Below are positions 38,509 to 64,000 of a stretch of DNA of 64,000 nucleotides, piece by piece. The position numbers and the translations under genes were made by a program. Source of the DNA: a virus. The DNA is taken from positions 32,001 through 96,000 of the IMG/VR virus record IMGVR_UViG_3300025789_000024. The stretch is one strand, 5' to 3'. The notes beneath the pieces are model-generated. The model did no database searches and had not been told where the DNA came from. It worked only from the letters and a program-made list of their open reading frames with translations. Position 1 is the first letter of the stretch. Every line of letters starts with the position of its first letter.

Positions 38509-38664
38509 ATGAATCATATTAAATCAAAAAGTCAAGGAAATCAAGGTAAAAAACAGCTTCCTACCAAGCCAAACGAGCATGGTGGGTTCTACTTTTCCTC
38601 TAGTATAAAGATTTTTGATCCAAATAGTAAACAAGTTTTGGTACAGAAAAGAGGGGACGTTTAA
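38509..38664 (+). CDS. Small 51-aa protein missing from the ORF track, resembling the N-terminus of the next gene product
   Basis: MNHIKSKSQGNQGKKQLPTKPNEHGGFYFSSSIKIFDPNSKQVLVQKRGDV*. It fills the gap, has its own promoter box, and its stop overlaps the next ATG (TAATG). Confidence 0.7.
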   Translation: MNHIKSKSQGNQGKKQLPTKPNEHGGFYFSSSIKIFDPNSKQVLVQKRGDV

Positions 38665-39284: not shown

Positions 39285-39292
39285 GATAAATA
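39285..39292 (+). promoter_or_regulatory. Late promoter box GATAAATA
   Basis: Intergenic, followed by a GGAG RBS. Confidence 0.6.
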
Positions 39293-39313
39293 AAGATAAC
39301 GGAGTTATAGATT

Positions 39314-40543: not shown

Positions 40544-40552
40544 GGATAAGAA

Positions 40553-41532: not shown

Positions 41533-41540
41533 TCTAAATA
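41533..41540 (+). promoter_or_regulatory. Late promoter box TCTAAATA heading the glycosyltransferase block
   Basis: Intergenic, followed by an AGGAG RBS. Confidence 0.55.
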
Positions 41541-41556
41541 CTCATAGGAGTGTACG

Positions 41557-41862
41557 ATGGATACAAAACAATTAATTGCCGACGCCAAAGCCCGTTTTAG
41601 TCATAATTCTGCTAAAGCATATCTTGCAGAAAAATACAATAACAAACTACTTGTCGCAGAACAGGGCGGCTTGTGGAAAGCCGATGGTCAAACAATCACC
41701 TTACTAACTTCAATCACATCCAAACGAGCAGTATTAGTAGATACTTTTGATAATCCGGTTGAAGTAGATCGTAACGCATTATTAACTAAGTTGAAAGAAG
41801 TCTATAATGAAGTTATGGATCAATGGTTACGTGAATGGAAAGAACTAGAGGCTAAACGATGA
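41557..41862 (+). CDS. Hypothetical protein
   Basis: Good RBS; ATGA-coupled to the next gene. Confidence 0.7.
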   Translation: MDTKQLIADAKARFSHNSAKAYLAEKYNNKLLVAEQGGLWKADGQTITLLTSITSKRAVLVDTFDNPVEVDRNALLTKLKEVYNEVMDQWLREWKELEAKR

Positions 41863-42665
41863 GTAGAGGGGCAATACTATTTGCTTTCAACTCACCTAAA
41901 TATGATTACTATGCAATGGCTAAATACACAGCCAAACGCATCAATCATTTTTTAGACTTGCCGGTTACAATTGTAACTGACGAACAGTCATTGCCCGAAA
42001 CGGAAGACTATGTTTGGGACAATGTTGTTACTACGATTCCTGACAAAAACAATATCAGAGACTATGGTGTTTGGATTAATAAAGGCAGATTTCAAGCATA
42101 TGAATTTAGTCCCTATGATGAAACACTATTATTAGATGCCGACTATGTTGTTAATTCTGACAAATTGTTAAAGACTTTTGATTTTTATGAGGACTTTAGT
42201 TGCCATAATAAAACTAGTTTTTTGATGCATCCGGGCGTACCACAAGAAGTGTTAAGCGTGTACAGTTATGAAACTCTTTGGGCAACTGCTGTTGCTTTTA
42301 AGAAAAGTAAACGCACTGAGCAAATCTTTAACTGTTTAGAAATGGTTCAAAATAACTATGATCACTATGCCAACATTCATAATTTTATTGCTGGGGTTTA
42401 TCGTAATGATTACGCACTTACTTTGGCTTTGCGCATTGTTAATGGGCATAGTGTTAATCCTACAGACTATATACCTTGGGATTTGTTGCACGTGGGTAAG
42501 AATACCTCTGTTTACGCTAATACTAGTGATGAGTACAATACAGAATACACAGTGATGTTTGATAATTGGCAACGTGGTAAGATTCGTAAAGAATATATTA
42601 CAATTAAAGACATGGACTTTCATGTGATGAATAAAGATAACTTTGTGGAGTTGATTAATGAATAA
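41859..42665 (+). CDS. GT-A fold glycosyltransferase (GT8-like)
   Basis: SPYDETLLLDADY (DxD), YRND and C-terminal HVMNK. Confidence 0.7.
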   Translation: MSRGAILFAFNSPKYDYYAMAKYTAKRINHFLDLPVTIVTDEQSLPETEDYVWDNVVTTIPDKNNIRDYGVWINKGRFQAYEFSPYDETLLLDADYVVNSDKLLKTFDFYEDFSCHNKTSFLMHPGVPQEVLSVYSYETLWATAVAFKKSKRTEQIFNCLEMVQNNYDHYANIHNFIAGVYRNDYALTLALRIVNGHSVNPTDYIPWDLLHVGKNTSVYANTSDEYNTEYTVMFDNWQRGKIRKEYITIKDMDFHVMNKDNFVELINE

Positions 42666-43404
42666 AGGTTTCGTAATCATGGCACAAGGTGACGATTATG
42701 TTAAATGTGCTGAAGTATTAAAGAAAAGCATTAAGCGTACTATGCCTAAAGCCAAAGTAACTATCATTACAACTGATATGTTACCATATGGTGATCAAGC
42801 ACCTGATACTAATTGGAAATTACAAAACGATTGGCAAGTATATGAAGCCAGCCCATATGAATATACAATCAAACTAGAAGCAGATATGTATTTGCCAAAG
42901 TCAATAGATTATTGGTGGGATGTTTTAGAGCATAGAGATATTGTTGTAAGCACTACAATTAGAAACTTCAAACAAGAAATTAGTGATATCAAAGCATATC
43001 GCAGATTTATTTACGATAACAAATTACCTGATACCTATAACAGTATTACTTACTTTAAGAAATCAGATACAGCACAGAAATTTTTTGAAATTGTTCGTGA
43101 TGTTTTTGAAAATTGGTCTTTCTATCGTAACTCACTACAATGTAACAAAGACGAACTTGCCACAACAGATTGGGCATATGCAATTGCCAGTCATATTATT
43201 GGCATAGAAAAAACCACAATGCCACAGTTCAAAGACATGAGTATGATTCACATGAAACAATTTGTTAATGGAACTCCTACGCAAAATTGGACTGATGTAT
43301 TGATTCATGAGGTGTCCAAAGATTATTTAAGGGTAAATACTATTCCCCAAATGTATCCTTTCCACTATCATATCAAAGACTTCTGTGATAAACTCAAGGT
43401 GTAA
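42658..43404 (+). CDS. GT-A fold glycosyltransferase paralogue (GT8-like)
   Basis: SPYEYTIKLEADM (ExD variant), clearly paralogous to the previous gene. Confidence 0.65.
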   Translation: MNKGFVIMAQGDDYVKCAEVLKKSIKRTMPKAKVTIITTDMLPYGDQAPDTNWKLQNDWQVYEASPYEYTIKLEADMYLPKSIDYWWDVLEHRDIVVSTTIRNFKQEISDIKAYRRFIYDNKLPDTYNSITYFKKSDTAQKFFEIVRDVFENWSFYRNSLQCNKDELATTDWAYAIASHIIGIEKTTMPQFKDMSMIHMKQFVNGTPTQNWTDVLIHEVSKDYLRVNTIPQMYPFHYHIKDFCDKLKV

Positions 43405-43406
43405 TA

Positions 43407-43760
43407 ATGACAGAACCAACACAAGAAGATTATATTTTATTTTGGGAAGCCCCCAAGATTGAAAAGCCTGAATTCAGACTCTACTATGATGCAAAGGGCA
43501 ATGTCATTTGCTATACTTGCGAAAAGTTAGAAGGTGATTACATTATAATTGATGCAATGACATTTGCAGAAGGTAGACCTGATGTTCGTGTGGCCAATGG
43601 TAAACTTGTAAAAGTCAATACAAATGCGGTTGTTTCTAAATTAGTACAGCATGATAGTGAAGGTCAACTTTGTCATAAAGATGATGTTAGTGTTGTGTTA
43701 ACAAAAAAAGACAATGTAAAAAAACAATTATGGAAATTAACAACATATGAGCTTGGATAA
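43407..43760 (+). CDS. Hypothetical protein
   Basis: In-operon ORF overlapping the next gene. Confidence 0.65.
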   Translation: MTEPTQEDYILFWEAPKIEKPEFRLYYDAKGNVICYTCEKLEGDYIIIDAMTFAEGRPDVRVANGKLVKVNTNAVVSKLVQHDSEGQLCHKDDVSVVLTKKDNVKKQLWKLTTYELG

Positions 43761-44703
43761 TATCATTGATGTAGCAGACTTAGATTGCATTTATCTAAGT
43801 TATGATGAGCCTCAAAAAGAAGAATTTTGGTTAAAGATTAAGAACATGGTGCCTTGGGCAAAACGTGTTGATGGTGTCAAGGGTAGTGATGCCGCACACA
43901 AAGCCGCAGGTGAAGCAAGTGATACAGAACGTTTTATTCTTATTGATGGCGATAACATGCCTGATGAAGAATTCTTTAACATTCAGTTAGACTTTACCGA
44001 CAAAGACCCGTCATTCAAGAAAGCACAGTTTCGCTGGAAAGCAGTTAATAGTATCAATGGGCTACGTTATGGTAATGGTGGCATGAGTAGTTGGACAAAA
44101 ACTTATGTGCGTGAAATGAAAACACATGAGCATCAAACTGAAGGTGATGTGTCACGTATTGCTGACTTTTGTTTAGACAGCAAAGACAACTTATACTGGG
44201 CAATGTATGATTGCTACTCAACTACATATCCTAACTATACACCATTTCAAGCATGGCGTGCTGGATTTCGTGAAGGTGTTAAAATGTGTTTGAATCGCGG
44301 TGCTGTTCCTAGCATTGAAGAATTCAAAGAAACAGTTGCAAGTCGTAATCTAAATAACTTAACTATCTGGCATAATGTTGGTAGTGATGTTGAAAATGGC
44401 ATTTGGGCAATCTATGGTGCAAGACTTGGTACTTATAAAACATTGCTTACTGATTGGAATGCACAGAATGTTCAGTGGTTTGACAACTATGTTGATATGT
44501 GGGAATCAGAATACAAAGATAAAGATCCTTTAGTTGAGTCGGGAGAAATTGGTAAAGCACTTAGTAGTAAACTAGGTTTACCTATGTGTATGCTTAATGC
44601 AGAACAAAGTAAATTCTTCAAACGTCATTATTCTGCAAACTTTCATAACAAAGGTCCATTGATTACAGAAATGGAAGTAATTCGTCAGATCGAAGGCTGG
44701 TAA
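43747..44703 (+). CDS. GT-A fold glycosyltransferase-like protein
   Basis: IYLSYDEP...RVDGVKGSDAAHKAA...FILIDGDN (DxD), AWRAGFREGVK. Confidence 0.6.
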   Translation: MSLDNIIDVADLDCIYLSYDEPQKEEFWLKIKNMVPWAKRVDGVKGSDAAHKAAGEASDTERFILIDGDNMPDEEFFNIQLDFTDKDPSFKKAQFRWKAVNSINGLRYGNGGMSSWTKTYVREMKTHEHQTEGDVSRIADFCLDSKDNLYWAMYDCYSTTYPNYTPFQAWRAGFREGVKMCLNRGAVPSIEEFKETVASRNLNNLTIWHNVGSDVENGIWAIYGARLGTYKTLLTDWNAQNVQWFDNYVDMWESEYKDKDPLVESGEIGKALSSKLGLPMCMLNAEQSKFFKRHYSANFHNKGPLITEMEVIRQIEGW

Positions 44704-46106
44704 TGTCAAACGAAACAGATAGAATTAAAACAATCAAAATTCGAGTAGAGAACGAATCTACTCCTACATTCTGTTTGGCTAAGTGGCATCATGTTACTAT
44801 GTACTTACAAAGTGGTGAGACACATAGTTGTTATCACCCACAACCACATAAGATTCCTTTAGAAGAACTGCGTGATAATCCCAGCGCATTGCATAATACG
44901 CAAGAGAAAAAGATGGAACGCAAGTTGATGCTTGAAGGTGGTAAGCCTACAGGTTGTCAATATTGCTGGAACATTGAAGCAATGGGACCTGACTATATCA
45001 GCGACCGTCATATTCGCAACAGTAGTATCTTTACAGAAGAACGTTTTGAGCAAACAGCAAAAGGTCCTTGGGACCAAAACATCAATCCAGAATACTTAGA
45101 AATTAACTTTGGTAACGAATGTAATTTCAAGTGCGGTTACTGTCATCCAAAGTATAGCACAAGTTTTTATAAAGAGATTGAAAAGTTTGGTCCCGTTACT
45201 AATGTAAAGAATCATCGTTGCGACATTGACTGGATGAAACTATATCAACGTGAAGAAGAAAATCCCTACGTTGATGCGTTTTGGAAATGGTGGCCTGAAC
45301 TACGCAAGACATTAAACATCATGCGTGTAACAGGTGGCGAACCCACACTTCACAAATCTACATGGCAACTGTTAGATAAGATTGAAGAAGAACCCATGCC
45401 TTGGCTTGAACTAAACATTAACAGCAATCTTGGAACAAAGCCAGTTCTCATAGAACGTTTAGCAGACAAGGTCAAAAAGTTAGTAGACGAAAATAAAATT
45501 CAAAGTTTTAAATTGTTTACTAGCATGGATACATGGGGAGAACGTGCTGAGTATATTCGTACTGGGTTAGACTTAAAGTTGTGGGAACAAAACTTTCACA
45601 CTTATGTACAACGCAGTAACAGCCCAATTACATTCATGATTACATTCAATATCTTTAGTGTGACTTCATTTAAGTCATTGCTTGAGAAGTTTTTAGAATG
45701 GCGTGAACAATATGGTTGGTTTGAAGAAAAGTCACACGACAAACATAGAATTCGTTTTGATACTCCATACCTTCGTGACCCTATTCAATATGACATGAAC
45801 ATTCTTCCCAAAGAAGAGTTTATGCCCTATATGTATGAATCACTACAGTTTATGAAGGACAATGTAGACGATACTGCTAGTAACAAGTTTACAACAATAG
45901 AATATGAAAAGTTCAAACGTGTAGTTGACTACATGGCTGAAACTAATTATGAAGAAAAGAAGTTGATTGAAGGTCGTAGAGACTTTTACAACTGGTTCAA
46001 TGAGTTAGATGATCGCAGAGAAAATGACTTATTAACCGTGTACCCAGAAATGTTGGAGTTTTATAGATTATGCCAGGAAACCAGCCTAACGAATCCTCTT
46101 TCGTAA
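44703..46106 (+). CDS. Radical SAM protein with an N-terminal twitch (auxiliary Fe-S) domain
   Basis: FCLAKW...SCYH...GCQYCW at the N-terminus, CNFKCGYC (CX3CX2C), TGGEP. Confidence 0.9.
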   Translation: MSNETDRIKTIKIRVENESTPTFCLAKWHHVTMYLQSGETHSCYHPQPHKIPLEELRDNPSALHNTQEKKMERKLMLEGGKPTGCQYCWNIEAMGPDYISDRHIRNSSIFTEERFEQTAKGPWDQNINPEYLEINFGNECNFKCGYCHPKYSTSFYKEIEKFGPVTNVKNHRCDIDWMKLYQREEENPYVDAFWKWWPELRKTLNIMRVTGGEPTLHKSTWQLLDKIEEEPMPWLELNINSNLGTKPVLIERLADKVKKLVDENKIQSFKLFTSMDTWGERAEYIRTGLDLKLWEQNFHTYVQRSNSPITFMITFNIFSVTSFKSLLEKFLEWREQYGWFEEKSHDKHRIRFDTPYLRDPIQYDMNILPKEEFMPYMYESLQFMKDNVDDTASNKFTTIEYEKFKRVVDYMAETNYEEKKLIEGRRDFYNWFNELDDRRENDLLTVYPEMLEFYRLCQETSLTNPLS

Positions 46107-47371
46107 AAAAGTTATTGCTTGGTAAGAGCAAGACTTTTTGTATGATACCTTGGGTTCACCTACATACCACCCCTGAGGGAGTGGCAGCACCTTGTTGTAT
46201 TGCAGAATCTTGTGCAACAAAAGAAGGTGTGGGTGATTCTAAAACACAAGGACTAATGGAACTAGTCAACAGCGAAAAGATGAACCAACTACGACTAGAT
46301 ATGTTGACTGGTAAAGAAAACATTGAATGCAGCAAGTGTTATAACCATGATGCACAGGGTATTGATAGTTTTAGAACCACATCTAATAAACAATGGAAAA
46401 ATTCATTTGACGATGTATTAGAAAACACAAATCTTGAAGACGGATCATTAAAAGAATTCAAAATGCGATATTTTGATATTCGCTTTAGCAATATCTGTAA
46501 TTTCAAATGTCGCACATGCGGATCAGCGTTTAGTACTCAGTGGGAACAAGAAGATTTAAAGAACGGAGTATTCTATGCAAAGATTATTCCAAAAAATAAT
46601 AATAAAAAGTTTTTGCAAGACGTATTAGATCAAATTCCAAATATGGAAATTGCATACTTTGCAGGTGGCGAACCATTAATCACTGAAGAACATTATATCC
46701 TACTTGAAGAAATGATTCGTAGCAGTCACACAGATATCTTATTAAGATACAATACTAACCTAAGTAACTTAAAGTTTAAAGATAAAGATTTACTTGGTTT
46801 ATGGAAACACTTTAGTCAAAAAATTCAAGTATATGCAAGTATTGATCATTGCAAAGAACGTGCAGAATATATTAGACATGGAACTGATTGGGGACAAGTT
46901 GAAACAAACTTTATGCTTGCCAAACAAACTCCCTATGTTAACATTCAAATTAACACAGTACTAAGTGTGTTCAACTATTTGACTATTGATGAGTTTTACC
47001 AATATTTAATTGATAAGGGTATGTATACTAATAAGGATGCAGTGTTTACATTATATAACATGACGACCCCTGATCATTTGACATGTCATATTCTACCACC
47101 TGAGTACAAAGTAAAAGGTGAAGAAAGTATCAACAGAGCAATACAGTATATGAGAAACAATGATTTTCTTGATCTACATACACAACAACTTGAAGTTGCT
47201 CCGGGTTGGGTAAATCACAAAGATAATTGGGACGAACAAAAAGTTAAATTTAAAGAAGAAGTAAAACGTCTTGATGCTATAAGAGGAGAATCATTCATGG
47301 AAACATTCCCTGAAATTGCAAATCTTTATAAACCAGAGCAAAGAGTAAGAGCAAGAATGGCACCAGTATGA
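46070..47371 (+). CDS. Radical SAM protein with an N-terminal twitch domain
   Basis: FCMIPW...PCC...ECSKCY, CNFKCRTC, AGGEP. Confidence 0.9.
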   Translation: MPGNQPNESSFVKKLLLGKSKTFCMIPWVHLHTTPEGVAAPCCIAESCATKEGVGDSKTQGLMELVNSEKMNQLRLDMLTGKENIECSKCYNHDAQGIDSFRTTSNKQWKNSFDDVLENTNLEDGSLKEFKMRYFDIRFSNICNFKCRTCGSAFSTQWEQEDLKNGVFYAKIIPKNNNKKFLQDVLDQIPNMEIAYFAGGEPLITEEHYILLEEMIRSSHTDILLRYNTNLSNLKFKDKDLLGLWKHFSQKIQVYASIDHCKERAEYIRHGTDWGQVETNFMLAKQTPYVNIQINTVLSVFNYLTIDEFYQYLIDKGMYTNKDAVFTLYNMTTPDHLTCHILPPEYKVKGEESINRAIQYMRNNDFLDLHTQQLEVAPGWVNHKDNWDEQKVKFKEEVKRLDAIRGESFMETFPEIANLYKPEQRVRARMAPV

Positions 47372-47762
47372 ACATAGACAAAGAATTTTTATTAAACGAA
47401 AGCAAAACATTTTGCATGTTCCCTTGGGTCCATCTTAATGTAACACCCAAGGGTGATATCTATCCTTGCTGTAGTAACGACTACACTAAGCCCTATGGTA
47501 ACACTAAGAAGTCTTCACTTAAAGAAGCATTCAACAGTGAACCAATGAAAAAGTTGCGATTAGATATGCTAAATGAAAAACAGAACGAACTATGTACGTT
47601 TTGTTACAAGCATGAAGAAGCCGGTCCGCACAGTTTTAGAAACTACAGCAAAGAACAATTTGGTAAACGCTTTGACGAAATTGTTCCAACTACACAGGAA
47701 GATGGAACAGTAGAAGAATTCAAAATGCGATATTTTGATATTCGCTTTAGCAATATCTGTAA
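46452..47762 (+). repeat. 49-bp exact direct repeat shared by two radical SAM paralogues (46452-46500 and 47714-47762)
   Basis: AAGAATTCAAAATGCGATATTTTGATATTCGCTTTAGCAATATCTGTAA is identical in both genes. Confidence 0.9.
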
Positions 47763-48603
47763 CTTCAAGTGTAGAACTTGCGGTAGTGAATTCAGCAGCC
47801 AATGGGGTGCAGAAATGCAAAAGCACTTTGATGACAAACATCCAATTGTTATTCATGCTGACGATGGTAAGGGTAATGTGTTGGCAGAAGTACTTGAACA
47901 TATTGAACATATTGATTTGGCATACTTTGCAGGTGGTGAACCACTGATCACAGACGAGCATTATGTGATGTTGGAAGAAATGATTCGTTTGGGTAAAACT
48001 GATATCACATTACGATACAACACAAATGCAAGTAATATCAAGTATAAGAAACATGATATCCTAGACTTATGGAAACATTTTAAAAAGATTGAATTAAGTT
48101 GTAGCGTAGATCATTATGGTGAACGAGCAGAATGGTTACGCAAGGGAACTGATTGGGGCAAAGTTGAAACCAATCTATTAACATTCCGTGACTTAGATTA
48201 CATTAGTTTCCAAATGAACACTGTGTTTAGTATTTTTAACTATAGCACCATTGGTGAGTTCTATCAGTATTTAAAAGACAAAAACATTGTTAGACGAGAT
48301 GATTGGTATCATAGTTTATATTTGGCTGTGCATCCAGATTACTATTGTGCTAAGAGTTTACCCAAAGAATTAAAAGTTGATGCAGCTAGTAAAGCACTTG
48401 CATGGGCAGATGCTAATAAAGATGACAACACCTCATTATCAAGATTAGTTACAGACGCAGTTAATTTTGCTAGTGATAAAGATCAATGGAGCGAAGTTAA
48501 AGGTAAGTTTTTGCAACATACCCGAAGTATTGATAGAATCAGAGAAGAAAACTTCTGGGAAGTATTCCCCGAATTAAATAAATTACAGGACTTAGAGGAA
48601 TAA
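47368..48603 (+). CDS. Radical SAM protein with an N-terminal twitch domain
   Basis: FCMFPW...PCC...LCTFCY, CNFKCRTC, AGGEP. Confidence 0.9.
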   Translation: MNIDKEFLLNESKTFCMFPWVHLNVTPKGDIYPCCSNDYTKPYGNTKKSSLKEAFNSEPMKKLRLDMLNEKQNELCTFCYKHEEAGPHSFRNYSKEQFGKRFDEIVPTTQEDGTVEEFKMRYFDIRFSNICNFKCRTCGSEFSSQWGAEMQKHFDDKHPIVIHADDGKGNVLAEVLEHIEHIDLAYFAGGEPLITDEHYVMLEEMIRLGKTDITLRYNTNASNIKYKKHDILDLWKHFKKIELSCSVDHYGERAEWLRKGTDWGKVETNLLTFRDLDYISFQMNTVFSIFNYSTIGEFYQYLKDKNIVRRDDWYHSLYLAVHPDYYCAKSLPKELKVDAASKALAWADANKDDNTSLSRLVTDAVNFASDKDQWSEVKGKFLQHTRSIDRIREENFWEVFPELNKLQDLEE

Positions 48604-48605
48604 AC

Positions 48606-48866
48606 ATGGCAACATTTGAAGCTGGAAACCGAGACGTAAAACTTGAAGGTATGGTAAAAGACATTATGGCAAAGTATGTCGATAAGACACCTTTTACTGA
48701 AGAAATTTGTGATCAAATCATGACAGATGTACTAGAGACATTTGGTAAAGAAGCCGATGCAAAGGTTATGATTGACACAGATACCAATGAAATTGAAATC
48801 ACAGTTCGTGATTTGATTAAGCAACCAATGACATTCTCATCACTTAAATTATTCAAGGCAAAATAA
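48606..48866 (+). CDS. Small acidic hypothetical protein inside the radical SAM array
   Basis: GAGG RBS, TAATG coupling to the next gene. Confidence 0.7.
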   Translation: MATFEAGNRDVKLEGMVKDIMAKYVDKTPFTEEICDQIMTDVLETFGKEADAKVMIDTDTNEIEITVRDLIKQPMTFSSLKLFKAK

Positions 48867-51093: not shown

Positions 51094-51097
51094 CAAT

Positions 51098-57296: not shown

Positions 57297-58003
57297 AAAC
57301 ATTGTTTACAAATGGTTGTAGCTGGACATATGGCGGTGGCTTAGATAATACATATGACGAAGAGACACTACGTAATCAAATCGCATGGCCAGCACAATTA
57401 AAAACACTAATGAACTTTGATACGCATGTTAACCTTGCAGAAGGGTGCGGTAGTAACCAGCGTATAGTTAGAACTACATTAGAATGGATATGGCAACAGA
57501 CACCCGAAACATTAGAGAACACTACAGCAGTAATACAATGGACTGAACCATCACGTTATGAATATTACTATCCTAAAGATATAAATGATAGTTATGAAAG
57601 TTTGCCTGATCGTTGGGCAAGAGTTAAAATTGGCACAGTAATTGGTAAAACAGAATTAAAAGACAGAAGTTCATATGAAGATATGTTAAAGGATTCTCAA
57701 AAACGATATGAAAATTACACAGACATTGAAGGATTGTATCAGCACATTACTCATTGCGAAACACTAGCCAGCATTTTTAAATCTTATGGAATAAAATATT
57801 ACTATTGGAGTTATTGTGCAATATATGGAAACATGGAACAACCTTATAAAAAATTTATTATGGATAGATATAATTGGTTAGAACCATCTGGTAGGCACCT
57901 TTGGGATTATGATAGGCTTTATAATGACCCCCACCCTAGTGTTTTGGGACAACAACAACTAGCACAGCATATAAAAAATTCCATAGAAAATATTAACCTA
58001 TAA
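57293..58003 (+). CDS. SGNH-like hydrolase or acyltransferase
   Basis: NGCSWTYGG, NLAEGCGSNQRI.R, IQWT, DPHPS..G. Confidence 0.6.
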   Translation: MKTLFTNGCSWTYGGGLDNTYDEETLRNQIAWPAQLKTLMNFDTHVNLAEGCGSNQRIVRTTLEWIWQQTPETLENTTAVIQWTEPSRYEYYYPKDINDSYESLPDRWARVKIGTVIGKTELKDRSSYEDMLKDSQKRYENYTDIEGLYQHITHCETLASIFKSYGIKYYYWSYCAIYGNMEQPYKKFIMDRYNWLEPSGRHLWDYDRLYNDPHPSVLGQQQLAQHIKNSIENINL

Positions 58004-58006
58004 ATA
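57999..58006 (+). promoter_or_regulatory. Perfect T4 late promoter TATAAATA
   Basis: 5 nt upstream of the ATG at 58012. Confidence 0.7.
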
Positions 58007-58011
58007 TCTAC

Positions 58012-59196
58012 ATGAAAAAAGTAGCAATGATTGGTCTTGGTAAACTAGGTTTACCATGTGCAGAAGTAATGGCATCATGTTATGATGTGTGTGGGTATGA
58101 CATAACCATTGTAGACCCTACAATGACAGTTGCAATTAAAGGTTCTATACAAGAAGCTGTAACAGATAGGGACATTATCTTTATTGCAGTACCCACACCA
58201 CATGATCCTAAATATGGTGGCGAGACACCAACTAGTCATTTGTCTAATACTGACTTTGATTACACAATTGTTATTAACACATTAAAAGAAGTCAATAGAT
58301 ATGTTAATAAAAATCAATTGGTTGTACTAATCAGTACCGTATTGCCAGGAACAGTGCGTAATCAATTAATCAATCATATTTCAAATGCACGTTTTGTTTA
58401 TAATCCCTACTTGATTGCTATGGGCACAGTAGCCGAAGACTTTGCTAACCCTGAAATGATCATCATTGGTACAAAAAATGGTTCAATTACAGGTGATGCT
58501 AGTGAGTTGATTGATTTTTACGCACCATTAATGAAAAATAACCCACGCATCGAAGTTGGTACTTGGGACGAAGCAGAATCAATTAAGATTTTTTACAATA
58601 CTTTTATTAGTGCAAAGATTGCATTAGTAAACATGATACAAGACGTAGCAGAAACTAATGGTAATATCAACGTTGATGTTGTTACCAATGCATTAGCAAA
58701 GTCATCGTATCGTATCATGGGACCTGCATATATGAAAGCAGGTATGGGTGATGGTGGGGCTTGTCATCCACGTGATAACATCGCATTACGTTATCTAGCA
58801 GACAGATTAGATTTAGGTTATGATTTGTTTGATAGTATCATGACTGCTAGAGAAGTACAAGCCAAAAGATTAGCGCAAACATGTTTGAAATATGGTAACA
58901 ACGTTACTATCATTGGTAAAGCATATAAGCCCGGAGTTCATTATACTAATGGCAGTAGTAGTTTGTTAGTTGGATATTATATCACTGAATTGGGTGGCAA
59001 TGTAAATTACTACGATGTACATACAGGTGATACTGACCTTAAAACAGAAACAACTGAAGTATACATGATTGGTTATTGGGACAAATATGTAGAAGAATTA
59101 GATTTGCCTAATACAGCAGTAGTTATTGACCCCTGGCGCAGATATAACAAAACATCTAAACAAACTATCCATTACGGAAACACTAGAATGGGTTAA
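58012..59196 (+). CDS. UDP-glucose/GDP-mannose 6-dehydrogenase family protein
   Basis: GLGKLG, FIAVPTP, STVLPGT, AESIKIFYN, GDGGACHPRD (catalytic Cys), AYKP. Confidence 0.9.
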   Translation: MKKVAMIGLGKLGLPCAEVMASCYDVCGYDITIVDPTMTVAIKGSIQEAVTDRDIIFIAVPTPHDPKYGGETPTSHLSNTDFDYTIVINTLKEVNRYVNKNQLVVLISTVLPGTVRNQLINHISNARFVYNPYLIAMGTVAEDFANPEMIIIGTKNGSITGDASELIDFYAPLMKNNPRIEVGTWDEAESIKIFYNTFISAKIALVNMIQDVAETNGNINVDVVTNALAKSSYRIMGPAYMKAGMGDGGACHPRDNIALRYLADRLDLGYDLFDSIMTAREVQAKRLAQTCLKYGNNVTIIGKAYKPGVHYTNGSSSLLVGYYITELGGNVNYYDVHTGDTDLKTETTEVYMIGYWDKYVEELDLPNTAVVIDPWRRYNKTSKQTIHYGNTRMG

Positions 59197-59236
59197 TGCG
59201 CCAATTCATGTGCATGAGTTAATTTATACGTAATAG

Positions 59237-59252
59237 TATAATGCTCTAAATA
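59237..59252 (+). promoter_or_regulatory. TATAAT and TCTAAATA boxes upstream of the second B12 radical SAM gene
   Basis: Intergenic, followed by an AGGAG RBS and a TTG start. Confidence 0.45.
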
Positions 59253-59272
59253 GATTATACTAGGAGCAATCA

Positions 59273-61585
59273 TTGGATTTCAATTTACGTAGTTTGGCTG
59301 TAGACGAATTAAAGCCAAAAGAAAAACCAACCGAAGACATAGCAGACGCACGCCATCGTAGCATGATGGAAGCTATTGCTCCCTATGCCAAAACTGTAGT
59401 AGTAAATCAAAAGAATCTTACTCCTGTTTATGTAGATTACAAAACACGTAATACAAAACTAGTATTAGTATTGTGTCCCGAATGGAGTCCTTATATGCCT
59501 CCGTTTAGTCTTGCTAGATTGTCAGGAGTCGCTAAGTCATCAGGTTATGAAACACATATCATGGACTTGAATGTCAAAGCATATAATACATATCGTGATG
59601 ATTGGCAACCTAACAAGAAGTTACCATTTAGACTTTGGGATCCTGCAAGTTCATGGCACTGGTTAGGTGACACATACATGAATGACATTCATCCTGTACT
59701 AGAACCTATTCTTAGTGAAGCAGTAGATAAGATTATTGAAATGAACCCAAGTGTTGTTGGATTCAGTATCTATTACATTAGTGAAGAGCCTAGCAAATGG
59801 ATGTGCCAAGAAATTAAACGTAGAGCACCTCATATTAAGATTGCAGTTGGTGGGCCTAATGTACACAAGAGTTGGTTCAAGATTGAAGACTATTATGACT
59901 ATGTTATTGTTGGCGAAGGAGAACAAAATCTATTAGTCATGCTAGATGAAATTGAAGCAGGTGAAGATCATAGTGGTGCGGCACGTATATTAACACAGCC
60001 AGAAGATCAACGTATCAATATCAATGGCTTGCCTATGCCAGACTATGAGAGTATTGACTTTAGTTTGTATGAAGTGCCTAACGGCGTCAACAGCGAAATC
60101 AGTCGTGGCTGTACTGCTAAGTGCACATTCTGTGAGGAAACACATTTTTGGAAGTATCGTCAACGCCAAAGTGTTGACTTGATTGATGAAGTAGAATGGT
60201 TATACTACAACAAGGGCACTGATATCATTTGGTTTATTGATAGTCTTATCAATGGTAATATTAAAGAACTACGTGCGTTTGCATTGGGACTTAAAGCCAA
60301 AGACTTGAAAGTACGTTGGACTGGTTATGCACGTTGTGATGGTCGCATGACATTAGAATACTTGCAAGACTTAGCAGACGGTGGTTGCATTATGTTTAAC
60401 TTTGGTTGTGAATCAGGATCACAAAAGGTGTTAGACGATATGCACAAGGGTGTGACCATTCAAGAAATGGAACAAAACTTTATTGACTGCAAGAAAGTAG
60501 GCATTTGGGCTGCAACTAATTGGATCGTTGGATTCCCCACTGAAGAGTACCAAGACTATAGCGATACAATGACATTCATGTGGCGTATGCGTAACAACAA
60601 TATCAATAACATGGGTCTTGGTGTAGGATATGGCTTAGGTCCCGAAACTATTGTAGGACAGAATCCACATGCATACAATGTGTCTTGGCACAAATATCAA
60701 GGTCATTGGATCAGTAATGATTTGCGTATGGGTGGCACACATGTTATGACACGTGTTAAGTGTATTCACATTTGGCTAGATATGTTTAATGGGGTCACTG
60801 AAGTTCCTGTGACATATCCTGTACGTCATGCACTTGCTCAACGTCATTATACAATCAAATTAAACAATCCTGCAAAACAAAAAGAAATGCACTATGAAGA
60901 ATTTGATTATAACATCATTCCAGAAGTAGATCCTAACAATCCTTTTGCTAATTCACTAGTAAATGAAATGTGGCCTTTCTTTAGAAATCTATGGCGCGCC
61001 CGTGGTGGTTATGAAGCAGAGATATTGTTTCACCCTGAACTAGATATCAAAGAGTTTGGTCAACAGTTTGGTCCCGAAATGTATTATGCAAAATACAAGT
61101 TCAAAATTAGTGATGAAGGAGTTTGGGAAGCAGACTTTGACATTAAGTTTGAACAAATTGATAATCCTTGGGATGATCGTGAACCTCCACCGAAGGGTCG
61201 TAAGGGTCCTTTCTACGCACAAGATTATTCACGCTTGCAAAGTAATACAGTTAAACGAGCAAGAAAGTTAGCGAAAGCAACTTGGAGTGAAGAAGAAGGC
61301 CGCAGTGGACAAGACTTTACTGACTTGTTAAATGAAGAAGAAGTTCTTAACAAAACAATTGATTTTAGTTTTGAATTGAAATGGCAAGGCACAGGTGATT
61401 GGAGTAATTACCTAGACTATGTAGTCACACTAGAAGAAAAAGAAAAGAAACGTGATAACAGCAAAGACTTGTCTATGCCTGAAAAAGAAACTGATGAAGG
61501 ACAAACAATTAAATCAGTTGTTCCGGCTGCTACAAACATTTCTTTAGATAGTATTAAACGAAGACCTAAACACTTGCTGCCATGA
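59273..61585 (+). CDS. Cobalamin-binding (class B) radical SAM protein
   Basis: PPFSLARL, VVGFSIY, IAVGGP, VGEGE, SRGCTAKCTFC, GCESGSQKVL..M.KG, WIVGFPTE. Confidence 0.85.
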   Translation: MDFNLRSLAVDELKPKEKPTEDIADARHRSMMEAIAPYAKTVVVNQKNLTPVYVDYKTRNTKLVLVLCPEWSPYMPPFSLARLSGVAKSSGYETHIMDLNVKAYNTYRDDWQPNKKLPFRLWDPASSWHWLGDTYMNDIHPVLEPILSEAVDKIIEMNPSVVGFSIYYISEEPSKWMCQEIKRRAPHIKIAVGGPNVHKSWFKIEDYYDYVIVGEGEQNLLVMLDEIEAGEDHSGAARILTQPEDQRININGLPMPDYESIDFSLYEVPNGVNSEISRGCTAKCTFCEETHFWKYRQRQSVDLIDEVEWLYYNKGTDIIWFIDSLINGNIKELRAFALGLKAKDLKVRWTGYARCDGRMTLEYLQDLADGGCIMFNFGCESGSQKVLDDMHKGVTIQEMEQNFIDCKKVGIWAATNWIVGFPTEEYQDYSDTMTFMWRMRNNNINNMGLGVGYGLGPETIVGQNPHAYNVSWHKYQGHWISNDLRMGGTHVMTRVKCIHIWLDMFNGVTEVPVTYPVRHALAQRHYTIKLNNPAKQKEMHYEEFDYNIIPEVDPNNPFANSLVNEMWPFFRNLWRARGGYEAEILFHPELDIKEFGQQFGPEMYYAKYKFKISDEGVWEADFDIKFEQIDNPWDDREPPPKGRKGPFYAQDYSRLQSNTVKRARKLAKATWSEEEGRSGQDFTDLLNEEEVLNKTIDFSFELKWQGTGDWSNYLDYVVTLEEKEKKRDNSKDLSMPEKETDEGQTIKSVVPAATNISLDSIKRRPKHLLP

Positions 61586-62160
61586 TAGAACAATTTGAAA
61601 AACAAATTGCTCAATTTTACAATGCACCCTATGCTATAGCAGTTGATTGCTGTACACATGCAATTGAATTGTGTTTGCGTTTAACAAAGCCGTTATCTGT
61701 TACTTGCCCTAATCATACTTATCCTAGTATTCCTATGACTTTTGAAAAGCTAGGGCTTGCATGGACGTTCCTTGACACATATTGGAAAGATTATTATTAT
61801 ATAGGTAACACTAATATCATTGACGCCGCAGTCTATTGGAAACAAGACAGTTATATTCCAAATACAAAGATGTGTTTGAGTTTTCAACATAAAAAGCATT
61901 TGAATGTTGGTCGAGGTGGTATGATATTACTTGATAACCATGAAGACTATCAAATATTAAAGAAAATGCGATATGATGGTAGACTAGACAATGTGCCTTG
62001 GAAAGAACAAAACATAGACATATTTGGATATCATTACTACATGACTATAGAAACAGCAGAATTGGGACTACAACGATTTGAAACTGCTAAAATTACACAA
62101 CCTAAACAATGGTCTTGGAAAGATTATCCAAACTTAGCTAACATGAAAGTTTTCCAATAG
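61582..62160 (+). CDS. Minimal DegT/DnrJ/EryC1/StrS-family PLP-dependent aminotransferase-like protein
   Basis: FEKQIAQF...AIAVDCCTHAIEL, IIDAA, SFQHKKHLNVGRGG (PLP Lys), GYHYYM; only 192 aa. Confidence 0.75.
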   Translation: MIEQFEKQIAQFYNAPYAIAVDCCTHAIELCLRLTKPLSVTCPNHTYPSIPMTFEKLGLAWTFLDTYWKDYYYIGNTNIIDAAVYWKQDSYIPNTKMCLSFQHKKHLNVGRGGMILLDNHEDYQILKKMRYDGRLDNVPWKEQNIDIFGYHYYMTIETAELGLQRFETAKITQPKQWSWKDYPNLANMKVFQ

Positions 62161-62170
62161 TTCCCTTATA

Positions 62171-62178
62171 GTTAAATA
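62171..62178 (+). promoter_or_regulatory. Late promoter box GTTAAATA
   Basis: 5 nt upstream of the ATG at 62184. Confidence 0.55.
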
Positions 62179-62183
62179 ATACT

Positions 62184-63908
62184 ATGAGTAATAGTGACAT
62201 ACAATTTGGTCATTTGGATATCTGTTGGAACGATGATTACAAAAGATTCCCTTATGTTCGCCAAAACCTTGCTGAAGAAGAAGTCAATAAGTGGAAAGCC
62301 AATGGGTATGACCATGTAAAAAGTTTTACTGGGATGCTATATGACAGCACCAATACTATGCCAGATTGGGTCAATCATATACGAGATGCATTTGGCTTGT
62401 ATAAACAAACTCACACTATCTATAAAATGCAAACGTTGGAAATTATGCCAACTCATGTAGATTATTTTAAACGATATGCAGAATTAAAAAAGGTAGATGT
62501 TAAAGATGTTTGGCGTGTGGTTATGATGCTAGAAGATTGGAAGCCAGGTCATTATTTTGAATTGAATGGTGTGGGCTATACTAATTGGAAGGCAGGAGAT
62601 TGGTTTAAATGGCGTTATGATGTTCCTCACGCAGCAGCAAACATTGGTATAGAAGATAGATATACACTACAAGTAACAGGCGTGTCTATGCACGTAGGAC
62701 AATTAAACAAGTTGCTTTGTTTTAATGTACCTGGTGTAGAAGATGCAGACAATTCACATCCTAATGTAAGACATTTAATATTACCAAACATTGACGAGAA
62801 TAAACCGTCAATGGTTTACACTAACAATAGTTTTATACGTGAATTAGATAGTATCAATCATACTAATCAATCTGAGATTGAGTTACTAAACGAAAAAGGA
62901 TTAGACATTTATTTGTACGAACCTATTTGTAGTTATGATTGTACCAATCCAGTACACACTCAAGAATTTTATTCAGAGTTTAGTAACATTGATCCAATGA
63001 GTTTACGAGCAGAAGAGTTAGACAGTATCAATGACTATGCAAAACGTAATGGGATAACTAACATTACTGTACATTCGTGTGACTATAACATTGATAAGTT
63101 TTATCCTGCATATAATTTTAAACTAACATGCAATGATATCTTTTTAAAAAGTCAAACAAACATTCTTAATTTAGACGAGACAATTAACTTTGACTTCACC
63201 AAGAAATTCATTTGTTTGAATTGGAGATTTACTAAGCATCGTCAATTGGTGTCAACCTTCTTAGCAGGCAAAGATGGTTATTTAAGTTGCTATTTCAAAA
63301 CTGATTTTGAAACATTGAAAAAAGGATTGTTCTTTAATTTAGATGATTGGAAAAATTCTGGGTTGTATGATAAAATGCAAATAGGTGCAGAGATACTTAA
63401 TACTCAAGGCCCCTTTTATGTTGATAAGAAGCCTACTGATATAGTAACTATTACTGATACTAGCAAACCTGATCTTACATGGCCTTTAGTTAGTGAAATT
63501 AAACCTAGTGAAACCCCATCACTACATAATTTCTCAAACAATCCATTGCAAGAATTTTACAGAGATATCTTTTTTGACATTGTTAATGAAACAAGATTTG
63601 CACAACCTACAGGAAATTTCAGTGAGAAAGTATTTCAAAACTTTCAATATAAAAAGCCTTTTGTGTTAGTCGCACCACCTAAGACATTAGAATATATTAA
63701 GTCATTTGGTTACAAGTCATTTAATGATTTTTGGGATGAGAGTTATGACGATGAATGGGACCATGGTGTCCGCTTAGAAAAAATATTAAATGTGATAGAC
63801 AGTATACTAATGAAACCAATTGAAGAATTACGTGAGATTTATAAAGACATGCTTCCTATACTAGAACATAACTTTCAAATCTACAACCAACGAGCAGGAA
63901 TAAAATAA
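62184..63908 (+). CDS. Fusion of an N-terminal Fe(II)/2OG oxygenase-like (cupin) domain and a C-terminal GT10-like domain
   Basis: MPTHVD...PHAAANIG...RYTLQVTG (HxD...H...R), then DIVNET...FSEK...KKPF...GYKSF..FWDESYD. Confidence 0.6.
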   Translation: MSNSDIQFGHLDICWNDDYKRFPYVRQNLAEEEVNKWKANGYDHVKSFTGMLYDSTNTMPDWVNHIRDAFGLYKQTHTIYKMQTLEIMPTHVDYFKRYAELKKVDVKDVWRVVMMLEDWKPGHYFELNGVGYTNWKAGDWFKWRYDVPHAAANIGIEDRYTLQVTGVSMHVGQLNKLLCFNVPGVEDADNSHPNVRHLILPNIDENKPSMVYTNNSFIRELDSINHTNQSEIELLNEKGLDIYLYEPICSYDCTNPVHTQEFYSEFSNIDPMSLRAEELDSINDYAKRNGITNITVHSCDYNIDKFYPAYNFKLTCNDIFLKSQTNILNLDETINFDFTKKFICLNWRFTKHRQLVSTFLAGKDGYLSCYFKTDFETLKKGLFFNLDDWKNSGLYDKMQIGAEILNTQGPFYVDKKPTDIVTITDTSKPDLTWPLVSEIKPSETPSLHNFSNNPLQEFYRDIFFDIVNETRFAQPTGNFSEKVFQNFQYKKPFVLVAPPKTLEYIKSFGYKSFNDFWDESYDDEWDHGVRLEKILNVIDSILMKPIEELREIYKDMLPILEHNFQIYNQRAGIK

Positions 63909-64000
63909 TGGAAAAGATAATGTTAATTGCCGGGTGTAGTCATGCTGCCGGATCAGAAATAGACGGACAAGAAGACAGTGTTTACAACCGACAACATAGT
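63908..64000 (+). CDS. SGNH-like protein, 3'-truncated by the window edge
   Basis: MEKIMLIAGCSHAAGSEIDG..., TAATG-coupled to the previous gene. Confidence 0.6.
   Translation, partial: MEKIMLIAGCSHAAGSEIDGQEDSVYNRQHS

Follow-up and report, generated by a model that had tools for sequence, protein, structure and literature searches.

A fibre-linked block of glycan-building and radical SAM genes in a marine jumbo myovirus

The window, the whole 64,000-nucleotide stretch analysed here, comes from an uncultured marine jumbo myovirus of the T4 superfamily, whose contig represents ~32% of a ~360 kb genome. The nearest cultured relatives of its baseplate protein are Rak2/CBB-type jumbo phages. The structural genes of interest are the following:

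15342-18743: baseplate wedge gene (phrog_10646), followed by the giant gene
18745-38493, plus strand: giant virion protein of 6582 aa, rich in Thr, Asn, Ser and Gly, a possible acceptor (ORF call and composition)
38664-39284, plus strand: conserved 206-aa protein of the fibre module (phrog_11259, E 3.3e-66; 83-98% identity in close relatives)
39314-40543, plus strand: tail-fibre-like protein with a C-terminal intramolecular-chaperone domain (Pfam Peptidase_G2 IMC domain, 25.5 bits, cut-off 25; phrog_14394, virion structural protein)
40553-41506, plus strand: fibre-like protein rich in Ser/Thr (30%), last of the structural genes (composition; position conserved in 45 loci)

The last of these has no family match in Pfam and PHROG searches. 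The giant protein weakly matches ORF361 of the cultured Ralstonia jumbo phage RsoM2USA, a virion protein with mass-spectrometry support (PMC8504454).

Behind the last fibre gene, 21 plus-strand ORFs fill the span 41557-63908. The first starts 50 nt past the fibre-like gene at 40553-41506, and 15 of the 20 junctions overlap or leave a gap of at most 4 nt. This bears out a reading made from the sequence alone, which had described more than 22 kb of co-directional, mostly coupled genes at this place. The operon extends ~11 kb beyond the window end. The gene that crosses this end is followed by those for a peptide of 34 aa, a NodU-like carbamoyltransferase, an SGNH-like protein, a repeat protein of 2171 aa, a secreted protein of 104 aa and a GT-B paralogue (351 aa). 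Three small ORFs within the block lack a family match:

41557-41862, plus strand: conserved 101-aa protein, with homologues at the same position in 28 loci
43407-43760, plus strand: 117-aa protein, present in 22 loci
48606-48866, plus strand: poorly conserved 86-aa acidic protein, in only 2 related loci

The glycosyltransferases (GTs) fall into two fold classes, and are named below, like the other genes, by their first coordinate:

41859-42665, plus strand: GT8-like GT-A glycosyltransferase (D93-x-D95 invariant in 31 sequences; RsoM2USA homologue, E 1e-18)
42658-43404, plus strand: paralogous GT8-like GT-A glycosyltransferase (phrog_1903; (E/D)xD, with D76 invariant in 31 sequences; RsoM2USA homologue, E 1e-35)
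43747-44703, plus strand: virus-specific GT-A-fold protein with an invariant DGD, D67/D69 (AF2 pLDDT 86.9; 40% identity to RsoM2USA)
51098-52441, plus strand: GT-B fold glycosyltransferase with a GT10-like motif (AF2 pLDDT 86.1; 207 Foldseek matches at E<=1e-3, all GT-B)
53409-54485, plus strand: GT-B paralogue (BLASTP matches to 51098, 62184 and the 351-aa paralogue past the window; E...EK...PF motif in common)
62184-63908, plus strand: HxD...H domain (~170 aa) fused to a GT-B paralogue (residues 453-565 match 51098, E 4e-19)

All three GT-A transferases that had been called from the letters hold up as GT-A-like, two by their DxD-type motifs (41859, 42658) and 43747 by its fold (Foldseek E 3e-4). 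The only PDB matches of the 41859 profile are 18 glycogenin (GT8) sequences, weak at E 0.15, with the DxD aligned. The 43747 model retrieves RmlT, TarP, HAS, BcsA and PBCV-1 A64R in Foldseek (E ~3e-4), and reaches VIA Z scores of up to 8.7 over ~140 residues. For the three proteins described as GT10-like, the GT-B fold is firm and the family assignment is not: the top VIA match of the 51098 model, H. pylori FucT (2nzx; Z 12.8, rmsd 4.8, 277 aligned), is tied with other GT-B families, and no Pfam GT10 match was found among 51098, 53409 and the C-terminal half of 62184. The ties include Gtf3 and GtfC, glycosyltransferases of serine-rich adhesins, and the T4 alpha- and beta-glucosyltransferases score similarly (Z 10.8-12.0). 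The N-terminal domain of 62184 is a stand-alone ORF in two related loci (L045 and L071) and keeps H91, D93 and H149 invariant. It has no Pfam or PDB match, and its earlier label as an Fe-oxygenase, based on the conserved HxD...H motif, was not confirmed.

Enzymes predicted to make or decorate sugars are interspersed with these transferases:

52438-53412, plus strand: extended-SDR NDP-sugar epimerase/reductase (Pfam Epimerase, E 2.2e-40)
54470-55378, plus strand: SGNH-like protein (GCSWTQG...DGAHPT motifs; weak Lipase_GDSL, E 0.02; in profile A7)
57293-58003, plus strand: DUF6071/SGNH-like protein (PF19547, 44.1 bits, cut-off 27; in profile A7)
58012-59196, plus strand: NDP-sugar dehydrogenase (Pfam UDPG_MGDP_dh N-terminal and central domains; TIGR03026, 161.8 bits, under the cut-off of 189.8)
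61582-62160, plus strand: short (192 aa) DegT/DnrJ/EryC1-like PLP protein (PF01041, 57.8 bits, cut-off 19.8; short form kept in 9 loci)
63908-64000, plus strand: start of a DUF6071/SGNH-like gene that leaves the window (continues as L001:908-1657)

Here the Pfam domains support the dehydrogenase, the DegT assignment is real despite the short chain, and three SGNH-like proteins (54470, 57293, 63908) were rightly recognised; the joint SGNH profile A7 matches the CE2 esterase Axe2C (E 1.8e-4) and TesA. The supposed GME-like epimerase is an extended SDR that is not specifically GME, its best NCBIfam match being GDP-L-fucose synthase at 112 bits, under the cut-off of 500.

Seven radical SAM enzymes complete the block:

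44703-46106, plus strand: N-terminal-twitch radical SAM of a divergent 'core' type, the most conserved between phages (NF033640, 316.5 bits)
46070-47371, plus strand: N-terminal-twitch radical SAM (NF033640, 370.8 bits; Pfam SPASM at residues 24-91, before the Radical_SAM domain)
47368-48603, plus strand: N-terminal-twitch radical SAM (NF033640, 374.4 bits; four invariant N-terminal Cys plus CX3CX2C)
48866-50137, plus strand: N-terminal-twitch radical SAM (NF033640, 357.6 bits)
50122-51093, plus strand: 323-aa radical SAM with a Cys-rich C-terminus (Pfam Radical_SAM, 33.4 bits; CNFRCSYC motif; in 46 loci)
55371-57296, plus strand: class B (B12-binding) radical SAM (Pfam B12-binding and Radical_SAM; KedN5 family, 253.7 bits, under the cut-off of 700)
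59273-61585, plus strand: class B radical SAM of 770 aa, with long extensions at both termini (Pfam B12-binding, 149-218, and Radical_SAM, 275-435)

The sequence-only reading had counted five twitch/SPASM and two B12 enzymes. The total and both B12 enzymes stand, four twitch enzymes exceed the 170-bit cut-off of the NCBIfam model NF033640 (N_Twi_rSAM), and 50122 is a plain radical SAM, with seven Cys counted by eye in its C-terminus. None of 14 control genomes reaches this cut-off. The core enzyme, 44703, shares 54-98% identity across most loci and 36% with RsoM2USA ORF349. NF033640 is a catalogued family for which we found no characterised member. The four tandem genes share its conserved N-terminal Cys quartet before CX3CX2C. 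They differ in their setting, multiplied among glycosyltransferases behind fibres, whereas the Bdellovibrionota arrays stand alone among housekeeping genes with no glycosyltransferase nearby. Single-copy bacterial members adjoin GT2 genes in all three loci examined, and the Vibrio phages K566 and K567 carry N_Twi-like arrays away from structural genes. Since such arrays can lie apart from structural genes and glycosyltransferases, the radical SAMs could have targets other than a glycan made at the same locus, although sugars would be their probable substrates here. That no pathway of this radical SAM density has been characterised still holds, but the density itself was already published: 12 radical SAM genes occur in a T4-like marine genome (PMC5332604), and pelagimyophages have radical SAM cassettes in their fibre-linked 'host recognition cluster', for which the authors favour modification of the host O-chain (PMC7029224).

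Most characterised SPASM/twitch enzymes mature peptides. This poses the question whether the twitch/SPASM-type and B12 enzymes modify a polypeptide directly, in a RiPP-like manner (cross-links, epimerisation, C-methylation). The substrate would be the fibre proteins or the conserved basic 34-aa peptide, with the glycosyltransferases acting on the same polypeptide. Among NCBIfam models, 59273 best matches RiPP C-methyltransferase and P-methyltransferase subfamilies, all under cut-off, and the 34-aa ORF, which ends in KELRKRDPFIYK, is near-invariant in 13 viral and 5 'MAG' loci. However, this peptide is linked in its occurrence to the pair of carbamoyltransferase and DUF6071 genes rather than to the radical SAM core, and it is absent from the RsoM2USA locus, where the core is present. 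No precursor-like ORF lies beside the radical SAM array (48606 occurs in only 2 loci), the N_Twi core has the nucleotide-modifying viperin as its closest relative of solved structure (E 4.4e-5), and its neighbours are sugar enzymes. We consider this explanation improbable.

The twitch dehydrogenase BtrN and the class B methylases GenK and GenD1 tailor aminoglycoside sugars. As in the block, twitch- and B12-type radical SAMs there stand beside DegT aminotransferases and dehydrogenases; unlike in the block, the twitch domain is C-terminal rather than N-terminal, and no significant sequence match to BtrN was found. The product could by this analogy be a soluble, nucleotide-sugar-derived small molecule, and a cyanophage has similar genes that were interpreted as 'antibiotic synthesis' genes (PMC12801897). 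Alternatively, the likenesses to the T4 glucosyltransferases and to viperin could point to glycosylation or hypermodification of DNA bases. But with seven to eight glycosyltransferases, an oligo- or polysaccharide is the more natural product, the block holds no exporter, and the GT-B resemblance is tied across many families. The block also lies in a late structural operon, apart from replication and nucleotide-metabolism genes. A small molecule or modified DNA is a very improbable product.

The signals for late transcription are as follows:

5140-6138, minus strand: gp55-like late sigma factor (phrog_12791 'sigma factor for late transcription', E 2.8e-72; phrog_234, E 2.9e-21; T4 gp55, E 8.9e-7)
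41535-41540, plus strand: TAAATA box, 17 nt ahead of the first cluster gene
51087-51092, plus strand: TAAATA box (ATAAATA), 6 nt upstream of a start codon
57999-58006, plus strand: full TATAAATA, the only one in the block, 5 nt upstream of a start codon
59247-59252, plus strand: TAAATA box in a 76-nt gap
62173-62178, plus strand: TAAATA box, 6 nt upstream of a start codon

The gp55-like sigma factor in the window makes T4-type late promoters plausible. Of 76 genes, 20 have a TAAATA core in the 45 nt before them, where shuffles predict 5.5 (at most 13 in 2000), and this enrichment is common to fibre, baseplate and cluster genes. The boxes had been placed correctly, and their core is common to the structural genes; only the one at 57999 is the full motif, which in exact form is not enriched (3 found, 8.6 expected). 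No excess of sigma-70 promoters or terminators was seen. The block is probably expressed late.

The linkage to tail genes, expected by the sequence-only reading, recurs in relatives. The order of the two fibre genes (39314, 40553), 41557, two GT-A genes, facultatively 43407, the third GT-A gene and the radical SAM persists down to 25-40% identity. In 35 of 37 informative viral loci, the first GT-A gene has a fibre homologue no more than 3.5 kb upstream of it, a statistic biased to one lineage, as loci were chosen by radical SAM homology, best matches first. In 52-54 of 58 loci the three GT-A genes precede the core radical SAM, and both the relatives and RsoM2USA have a homologue of 39314 ahead of their GT genes. 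In RsoM2USA, the core (ORF355-348) follows the tail sheath and virion proteins, and the neighbouring ORF356, ORF359 and ORF361 are listed virion proteins (PMC8504454). ORF348-355 (MG752970) match in fibre-like gene, small ORF, two GT8-like genes, small ORF, GT-A and N_Twi at 29-40% identity. The RsoM2USA locus is minimal in comparison, with one core radical SAM (a second lies elsewhere in the genome) and no B12 radical SAMs, GT-B paralogues or carbamoyltransferase, and its genes are all annotated as hypothetical.

No cluster ORF has a transmembrane segment, and the cluster encodes no flippase, polyprenyl-phosphate transferase, polymerase or exporter. Initiating transferases of the Bac_transf and Glycos_transf_4 families are absent from the contig, from three relatives of 185-200 kb and from the complete RsoM2USA genome, with positive controls. 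This fits transfer onto a soluble acceptor. The host can, however, provide lipid carrier and export for an envelope glycan. The main rival explanation is that the phage uses host nucleotide sugars to alter LPS O-chain, capsule or another surface glycan, with lipid carrier, flippase and ligase supplied by the host; the gain would be a block to superinfection, or progeny that do not stick to debris during a long latency. Such remodelling is the published default for the pelagimyophage host recognition cluster (PMC7029224) and for cyanomyophages (PMC12801897), and dehydrogenase, epimerase, DegT, GT8-like and GT-B proteins and carbamoyl or acyl tailoring are typical of O-antigen loci. Like the block, the host recognition cluster of pelagimyophages and cyanomyophages is a large island in the structural region, where fibres and glycosyltransferases stand together with radical SAM cassettes and LPS-type sugar enzymes (PMC7029224). 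Its phage lineage is a different one and it is hypervariable, whereas the core described here is a conserved fibre neighbour of fixed order rather than a shuffled accessory island. In addition, the core families are absent from deposited and cultured cyanophage and pelagiphage genomes, late co-transcription with structural genes would allow little time to remodel the surface, and the membrane and initiating steps are missing even from the complete RsoM2USA genome. We regard envelope remodelling as unlikely.

A glycan-building and tailoring pathway is well supported by the gene content, and a virion protein is a plausible acceptor. We tentatively propose, at somewhat less than an even chance, that a late-type operon tailors a glycan made by soluble enzymes, most likely on a virion protein. 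Its transcription would carry on from that of the baseplate and fibre genes. The SDR epimerase/reductase, dehydrogenase and DegT-like aminotransferase would make or modify nucleotide sugars, and three GT-A and three to four GT-B transferases would transfer them. The SGNH proteins may O-acylate or deacylate the glycan, the NodU-like enzyme just past the window may carbamoylate it and the two B12 radical SAMs may C-methylate it, with further radical chemistry by the four N-terminal-twitch enzymes and 50122. Candidate acceptors are the adjacent Ser/Thr/Asn-rich fibre proteins or the 6582-aa giant, which would be glycosylated in the cytoplasm at assembly. Virion glycosylation, as suggested from the sequence alone, agrees with the glycan enzymes, the continuity with the fibres, the late-promoter-like box and the gp55-like sigma factor; against it, the fibre proteins show no consistent enrichment of NxS/T sequons (z -2.4 to +2.6).

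Virus-encoded glycans on mycobacteriophage capsids and tail tubes are described by Freeman 2023, as cited in PMC12619734. Like these phages and the chlorovirus PBCV-1, the virus encodes soluble glycosyltransferases beside structural genes; there the virion glycan is demonstrated and radical SAMs are lacking, while here a glycan on the virion is proposed. The 43747 model matches A64R (PDB 2p6w), the PBCV-1 capsid glycosyltransferase, with a Foldseek probability of 1.00 and a VIA Z score of 8.4 (rmsd 3.5, 144 aligned).

The DNA is part of the genome of a marine jumbo phage, so far uncultured, that belongs to the T4 superfamily. The window spans 32001-96000 of a viral contig 115,390 bp long, whose 32% completeness in CheckV corresponds to a genome of ~360 kb. 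The assignment follows from the baseplate protein at 6053-7894, whose closest cultured relatives are jumbo myoviruses of the Rak2/CBB/BF type and not cyanophages, together with homologues of the core radical SAM gene 44703 (genes are named by their window start) on metagenomic contigs as long as 358 kb. A nucleotide-level search of deposited phage records gave one match only, a virus contig from a seawater single cell (72% identity). An initial idea, that the region is an LPS island of the cyanophage or pelagimyophage kind, was rejected on the same baseplate evidence and because the core genes have no homologue in deposited cyanophage or pelagiphage genomes.

The block of glycosyltransferase and radical SAM genes starts at 41557, and structural genes precede it. 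SbcCD-like gp46/gp47 homologues lie upstream, with a gp55-like late sigma factor; a gp55-type factor is also present in two of the three large relatives searched and in RsoM2USA, a cultured Ralstonia jumbo phage. Next upstream of the block stand, in order, the baseplate hub, gp25 and wedge genes, a 6582-aa ORF with weak similarity to the 2541-aa RsoM2USA virion protein ORF361, and three fibre-module genes:

5140-6138, minus strand: gp55-like late sigma factor (phrog_12791, E 2.8e-72; T4 gp55, E 8.9e-7)
18745-38493: 6582-aa protein rich in Thr, Asn, Val, Ser and Gly, encoded by a single ORF directly after the baseplate wedge gene
38664-41506: three fibre-module genes, of which 39314 carries an intramolecular-chaperone domain

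The sequence-only reading had described co-directional, mostly coupled genes after the last fibre gene, and this is borne out. Between 41557 and 63908 there are 21 consecutive plus-strand ORFs, with 15 of the 20 junctions overlapping or ≤4 nt, and no excess of sigma-70 promoters or terminators. The operon extends ~11 kb beyond the window end, where the same contig (locus L001) encodes, in order:

DUF6071 gene
64650-64754 (L001:1650-1754): very basic 34-aa ORF (MFNW...KELRKRDPFIYK), between the DUF6071/SGNH-like gene and the carbamoyltransferase
NodU-type carbamoyltransferase
SGNH-like gene
66936-73451 (L001:3936-10451): 2171-aa protein with Trp/Pro/Asp-rich repeats, about 20 of the form FDFSWHPD...PYIYxFGTQW..GGP
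small secreted protein
fourth GT-B paralogue

The C-terminal 12 residues of the 34-aa ORF (KELRKRDPFIYK) are nearly invariant in 18 other loci (13 viral and five from 'MAG' contigs), across which the flanking enzymes are only 50-63% identical. The ORF was not found at the RsoM2USA locus.

All seven radical SAM enzymes claimed for the block were recovered: four tandem N-terminal-twitch enzymes (N_Twi), one Cys-rich enzyme and two with B12-binding domains. The N_Twi enzymes exceed the 170-bit cut-off of NF033640 by a wide margin (44703, 316.5; 46070, 370.8; 47368, 374.4; 48866, 357.6 bits). Here, the Pfam SPASM match (residues 16-91) precedes the Radical_SAM domain, and invariant cysteines C16, C35, C76 and C79 stand ahead of the CX3CX2C core (C131, C135, C138). 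With 26.7 bits against the same model, 50122 is not a member, and is a further radical SAM enzyme with a Cys-rich C-terminus. 55371 and 59273 match both PF02310 (B12-binding) and PF04055 (radical SAM) above cut-off, and thus have the domain architecture of class B (cobalamin) radical SAM enzymes. Methyl transfer itself is a prediction; against the curated class B methyltransferase subfamilies, 55371 scores 253.7 bits (KedN5 cut-off 700) and 59273 at best 102.6 (cut-off 281.85). Among solved structures, viperin is closest to the N_Twi core (E 4.4e-5); it acts on a nucleotide.

Several glycosyltransferases were assigned from fold and motif. Pfam, PHROGs and NCBIfam yielded no match for 41557, 41859, 43407, 43747, 48606, 51098, 53409 and 62184. 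A (D/E)xD motif is conserved in the paralogues 41859 and 42658, with D93/D95 of the first and D76 of the second invariant in 31 homologues each. This GT8-like pair has no Pfam match, and in the PDB its profile finds only glycogenin (18 sequences), weakly (E 0.15). The AF2 model of 43747 (pLDDT 86.9) has a GT-A fold in its N-terminal half with an invariant D67-G-D69. In Foldseek it matched RmlT, HAS, BcsA, TarP and A64R, with E values from 3e-4 to 3e-3, and VIA gave middling Z scores of 8.0-8.7 over about 140 N-terminal residues; PF00535 was not matched. The C-terminal domain of the 2171-aa protein is homologous to 43747, with FAK in place of DGD and thus no DxD.

On its AF2 model (pLDDT 86.1), 51098 is clearly a GT-B enzyme: all 207 Foldseek matches at E ≤ 1e-3 are GT-B proteins, and 285 chains reach VIA Z ≥ 8. 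53409 is paralogous to it, as is the C-terminal half of 62184. For these three proteins, previously called GT10-like, the fold stands and the family was not confirmed. For 51098, H. pylori GT10 FucT does rank first (2nzx, 2nzy and 2nzw at ranks 1-3, Z 12.3-12.8, rmsd 4.6-4.8, 267-279 residues aligned), with EXT1/2, Gtf3, GtfC and T4 beta-glucosyltransferase tied within 1 Z, and PF00852 (Glyco_transf_10) matched none of the three even at E ≤ 10. Profile searches of PDB sequences returned nothing useful for the GT-B family (profiles A1, A5) or 43747 (A3), and in the ESM Atlas the matches were confined to virus-only 'hypothetical' clusters, with a weak GT2 lead and a weak GT10 lead (0.79).

Among the sugar-nucleotide and tailoring enzymes, 58012 is an NDP-sugar dehydrogenase and 52438 an extended-SDR epimerase/reductase, for which the narrower label of GME-like epimerase was not confirmed. 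The SGNH-like proteins have G8, S10, G14 and H214 invariant in an 11-sequence alignment (block I Gly-x-Ser, block V Asp-x-x-His), and their joint profile matches the CE2 acetyl-xylan esterase Axe2C (E 1.8e-4, both blocks aligned) as well as TesA. 57293 matches DUF6071 above cut-off. The DegT-like gene 61582-62160 scores 57.8 bits against PF01041 (cut-off 19.8) and has the SF-x-x-K-x5-G-x-GG motif. At 192 aa, covering profile positions 167-238, it is half the normal length (the full fold takes about 360-400 aa). Since the short form is kept in nine related loci, we regard it as a compact variant and not a broken gene. The N-terminal domain of 62184, a candidate Fe(II)/2OG oxygenase or cupin, has H91, D93 and H149 (HxD...H) invariant in three homologues, with no match in Pfam or the PDB (profile A6). 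This motif is the sole basis of the earlier Fe-oxygenase label, which we could not confirm.

The sequence-only reading had further pointed to five TAAATA boxes in the block. All five are there, of which only that at 57999 is a full TATAAATA, and the exact octamer shows no enrichment, with 3 occurrences where 8.6 were expected. The TAAATA core lies ≤45 nt upstream of 20 of the 76 contig genes; composition-matched shuffles gave 5.5, and at most 13 in any of 2000. These 20 include fibre, baseplate and cluster genes. As the enrichment is common to both gene sets and the window encodes a gp55-type sigma factor, shared late regulation of structural and cluster genes is a reasonable inference. By their spacing the boxes form two classes. 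Ten stand 4-5 nt ahead of the ATG (window 14821-14826, 51087-51092, 58001-58006 and 62173-62178, plus six elsewhere on the contig), and the others 14-34 nt upstream, mostly with a GGAG-like element between box and start. Late mRNAs from the first class would be leaderless or nearly so.

When IMG/VR was scanned with a degenerate pattern, more than 553 viral stretches encoding N_Twi enzymes emerged, and 79 loci were kept. Among these the order fibre (39314), fibre (40553), 41557, GT-A, GT-A, (43407), GT-A, radical SAM (44703 type), more radical SAMs, GT-B recurs down to 25-40% identity. In 35 of 37 informative loci the first GT-A gene has a fibre homologue ≤3.5 kb upstream, and in 52-54 of 58 the three GT-A genes stand ahead of the core radical SAM, counts that are biased because the loci were chosen by radical SAM homology. 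Linkage of the block to fibre genes holds in relatives, and extends to RsoM2USA. Downstream, the number of radical SAM genes, the B12 enzymes, the GT-B copies and the presence of a dehydrogenase or carbamoyltransferase all vary. Together with the fixed upstream order, this makes the block a conserved core with a tailoring periphery that varies. Of the 50,697 phage genomes in the deposited set, only RsoM2USA has the core; there, ORF355 to ORF348 follow the same order, are all annotated as hypothetical and lie directly beside the tail sheath ORF359, structural protein ORF356 and giant virion protein ORF361 (PMC8504454). N_Twi copies above cut-off number four here, five to seven in three large relatives, two in RsoM2USA and none in 14 control genomes. 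A counter-example is provided by Vibrio phages K566 and K567, in which N_Twi-like arrays lie amid small accessory ORFs, far from structural genes.

The family is not confined to phages. Metagenomic NF033640-type members run into thousands (4420 matches at E ≤ 1e-10 for one paralogue), and homologues with 30-38% identity occur in GTDB genomes, often in tandem arrays of 2-8 copies. Predatory Bdellovibrionota account for 30 of 78 kept loci, the others including Bacteroidota, Elusimicrobia, Paenibacillus and a Synechococcus. A GT2 gene was nearby in all three single-copy bacterial loci examined, in Paenibacillus with ACP, KS, KR and thioesterase genes. The Bdellovibrionota arrays are flanked by unrelated housekeeping genes. 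Six 'MAG' contigs (L092, L106, L110, L111, L112, L120), binned as Legionellales, Haliscomenobacter, Verrucomicrobia TMED56, Rickettsiales MED606 and Betaproteobacteria TMED41, carry the entire phage fibre/glycosyltransferase/radical SAM module and are probably mis-binned jumbo-phage DNA.

What might this pathway make? Judged from its genes, the enzyme set would most probably produce unusual NDP-sugars, which seven or eight glycosyltransferases would transfer, and the glycan would then be tailored by acylation, carbamoylation, C-methylation and further radical chemistry. As to the acceptor, no lipid-carrier polysaccharide pathway (Wzx/Wzy or ABC) is evident: cluster ORFs contain no TM segment, and neither family of polyprenyl-phosphate initiating transferases, PF02397 or PF00953, occurs in this contig, in three relatives of 185-200 kb or in the complete genome of RsoM2USA (positive controls matched in 10 and 12 of 14 genomes). 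Furthermore, the core is locked to fibre genes across a large evolutionary distance, and both gene sets share the promoter-like box. These four observations argue for a soluble, co-made acceptor, most simply the neighbouring fibre or giant proteins, and we hold a virion glycan with a little less than even confidence. Chloroviruses and mycobacteriophages offer precedents for virion proteins that are glycosylated in the cytoplasm by virus-encoded enzymes, and the present block shares their genomic hallmark, soluble glycosyltransferase genes adjoining structural genes. Alternatively, the product may remodel the host envelope glycan, as favoured in published readings of comparable islands as host O-chain remodelling (PMC7029224, PMC12801897). 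The host could provide the lipid-linked steps, but the cluster itself encodes neither a membrane protein nor a lipid-carrier initiating transferase, and we consider this role unlikely. Counting against a virion glycan, NxS/T sequons show no consistent enrichment in the fibre proteins, and N_Twi arrays occur without any glycosyltransferase or fibre context in Bdellovibrionota and in K566 and K567. Direct, RiPP-like modification of a protein or peptide appears improbable to us, and a small-molecule product or DNA modification slightly more so.

We therefore put forward only tentatively, as a rather doubtful proposal, that a large, mostly uncultured clade of jumbo phages carries a conserved pathway in which a glycan is built on fibre or giant virion proteins and then edited by N_Twi and cobalamin radical SAM enzymes. 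If true, this would be a new class of post-translational virion decoration and the first function for NF033640, with a first substrate and reaction for this large family, and the presence of the same family in Bdellovibrionota, which are predatory, would be a hint of 'predator surface' chemistry common to both. Particles bearing radical-SAM-tailored glycans would have a bearing on host recognition, on the resistance of marine virions to grazing and enzymes, and on phage immunogenicity. RsoM2USA, with its minimal core, offers a culturable entry point, which makes a direct test feasible. What would be gained is limited by the fact that fibre-linked glycosyltransferase and radical SAM islands of marine myoviruses have already been described genomically (PMC7029224); high numbers of radical SAM genes in certain T4-like genomes have likewise been published (PMC5332604), and NF033640 itself is a catalogued family. 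As far as could be found, the fixed-order core common to a culturable phage has gone unrecognised in print.

Other contigs of marine origin encode proteins of 850-1200 aa in which two intact 43747-like domains are fused together. Separately, a gene situated amid the upstream fibre genes, at contig 19926-20630 (minus strand; window -12074 to -11370), encodes a 234-aa protein with predicted TM segments, and its homologues (25-30% identity) lie just upstream of N_Twi genes in two bacterial or MAG loci (L093, L101).
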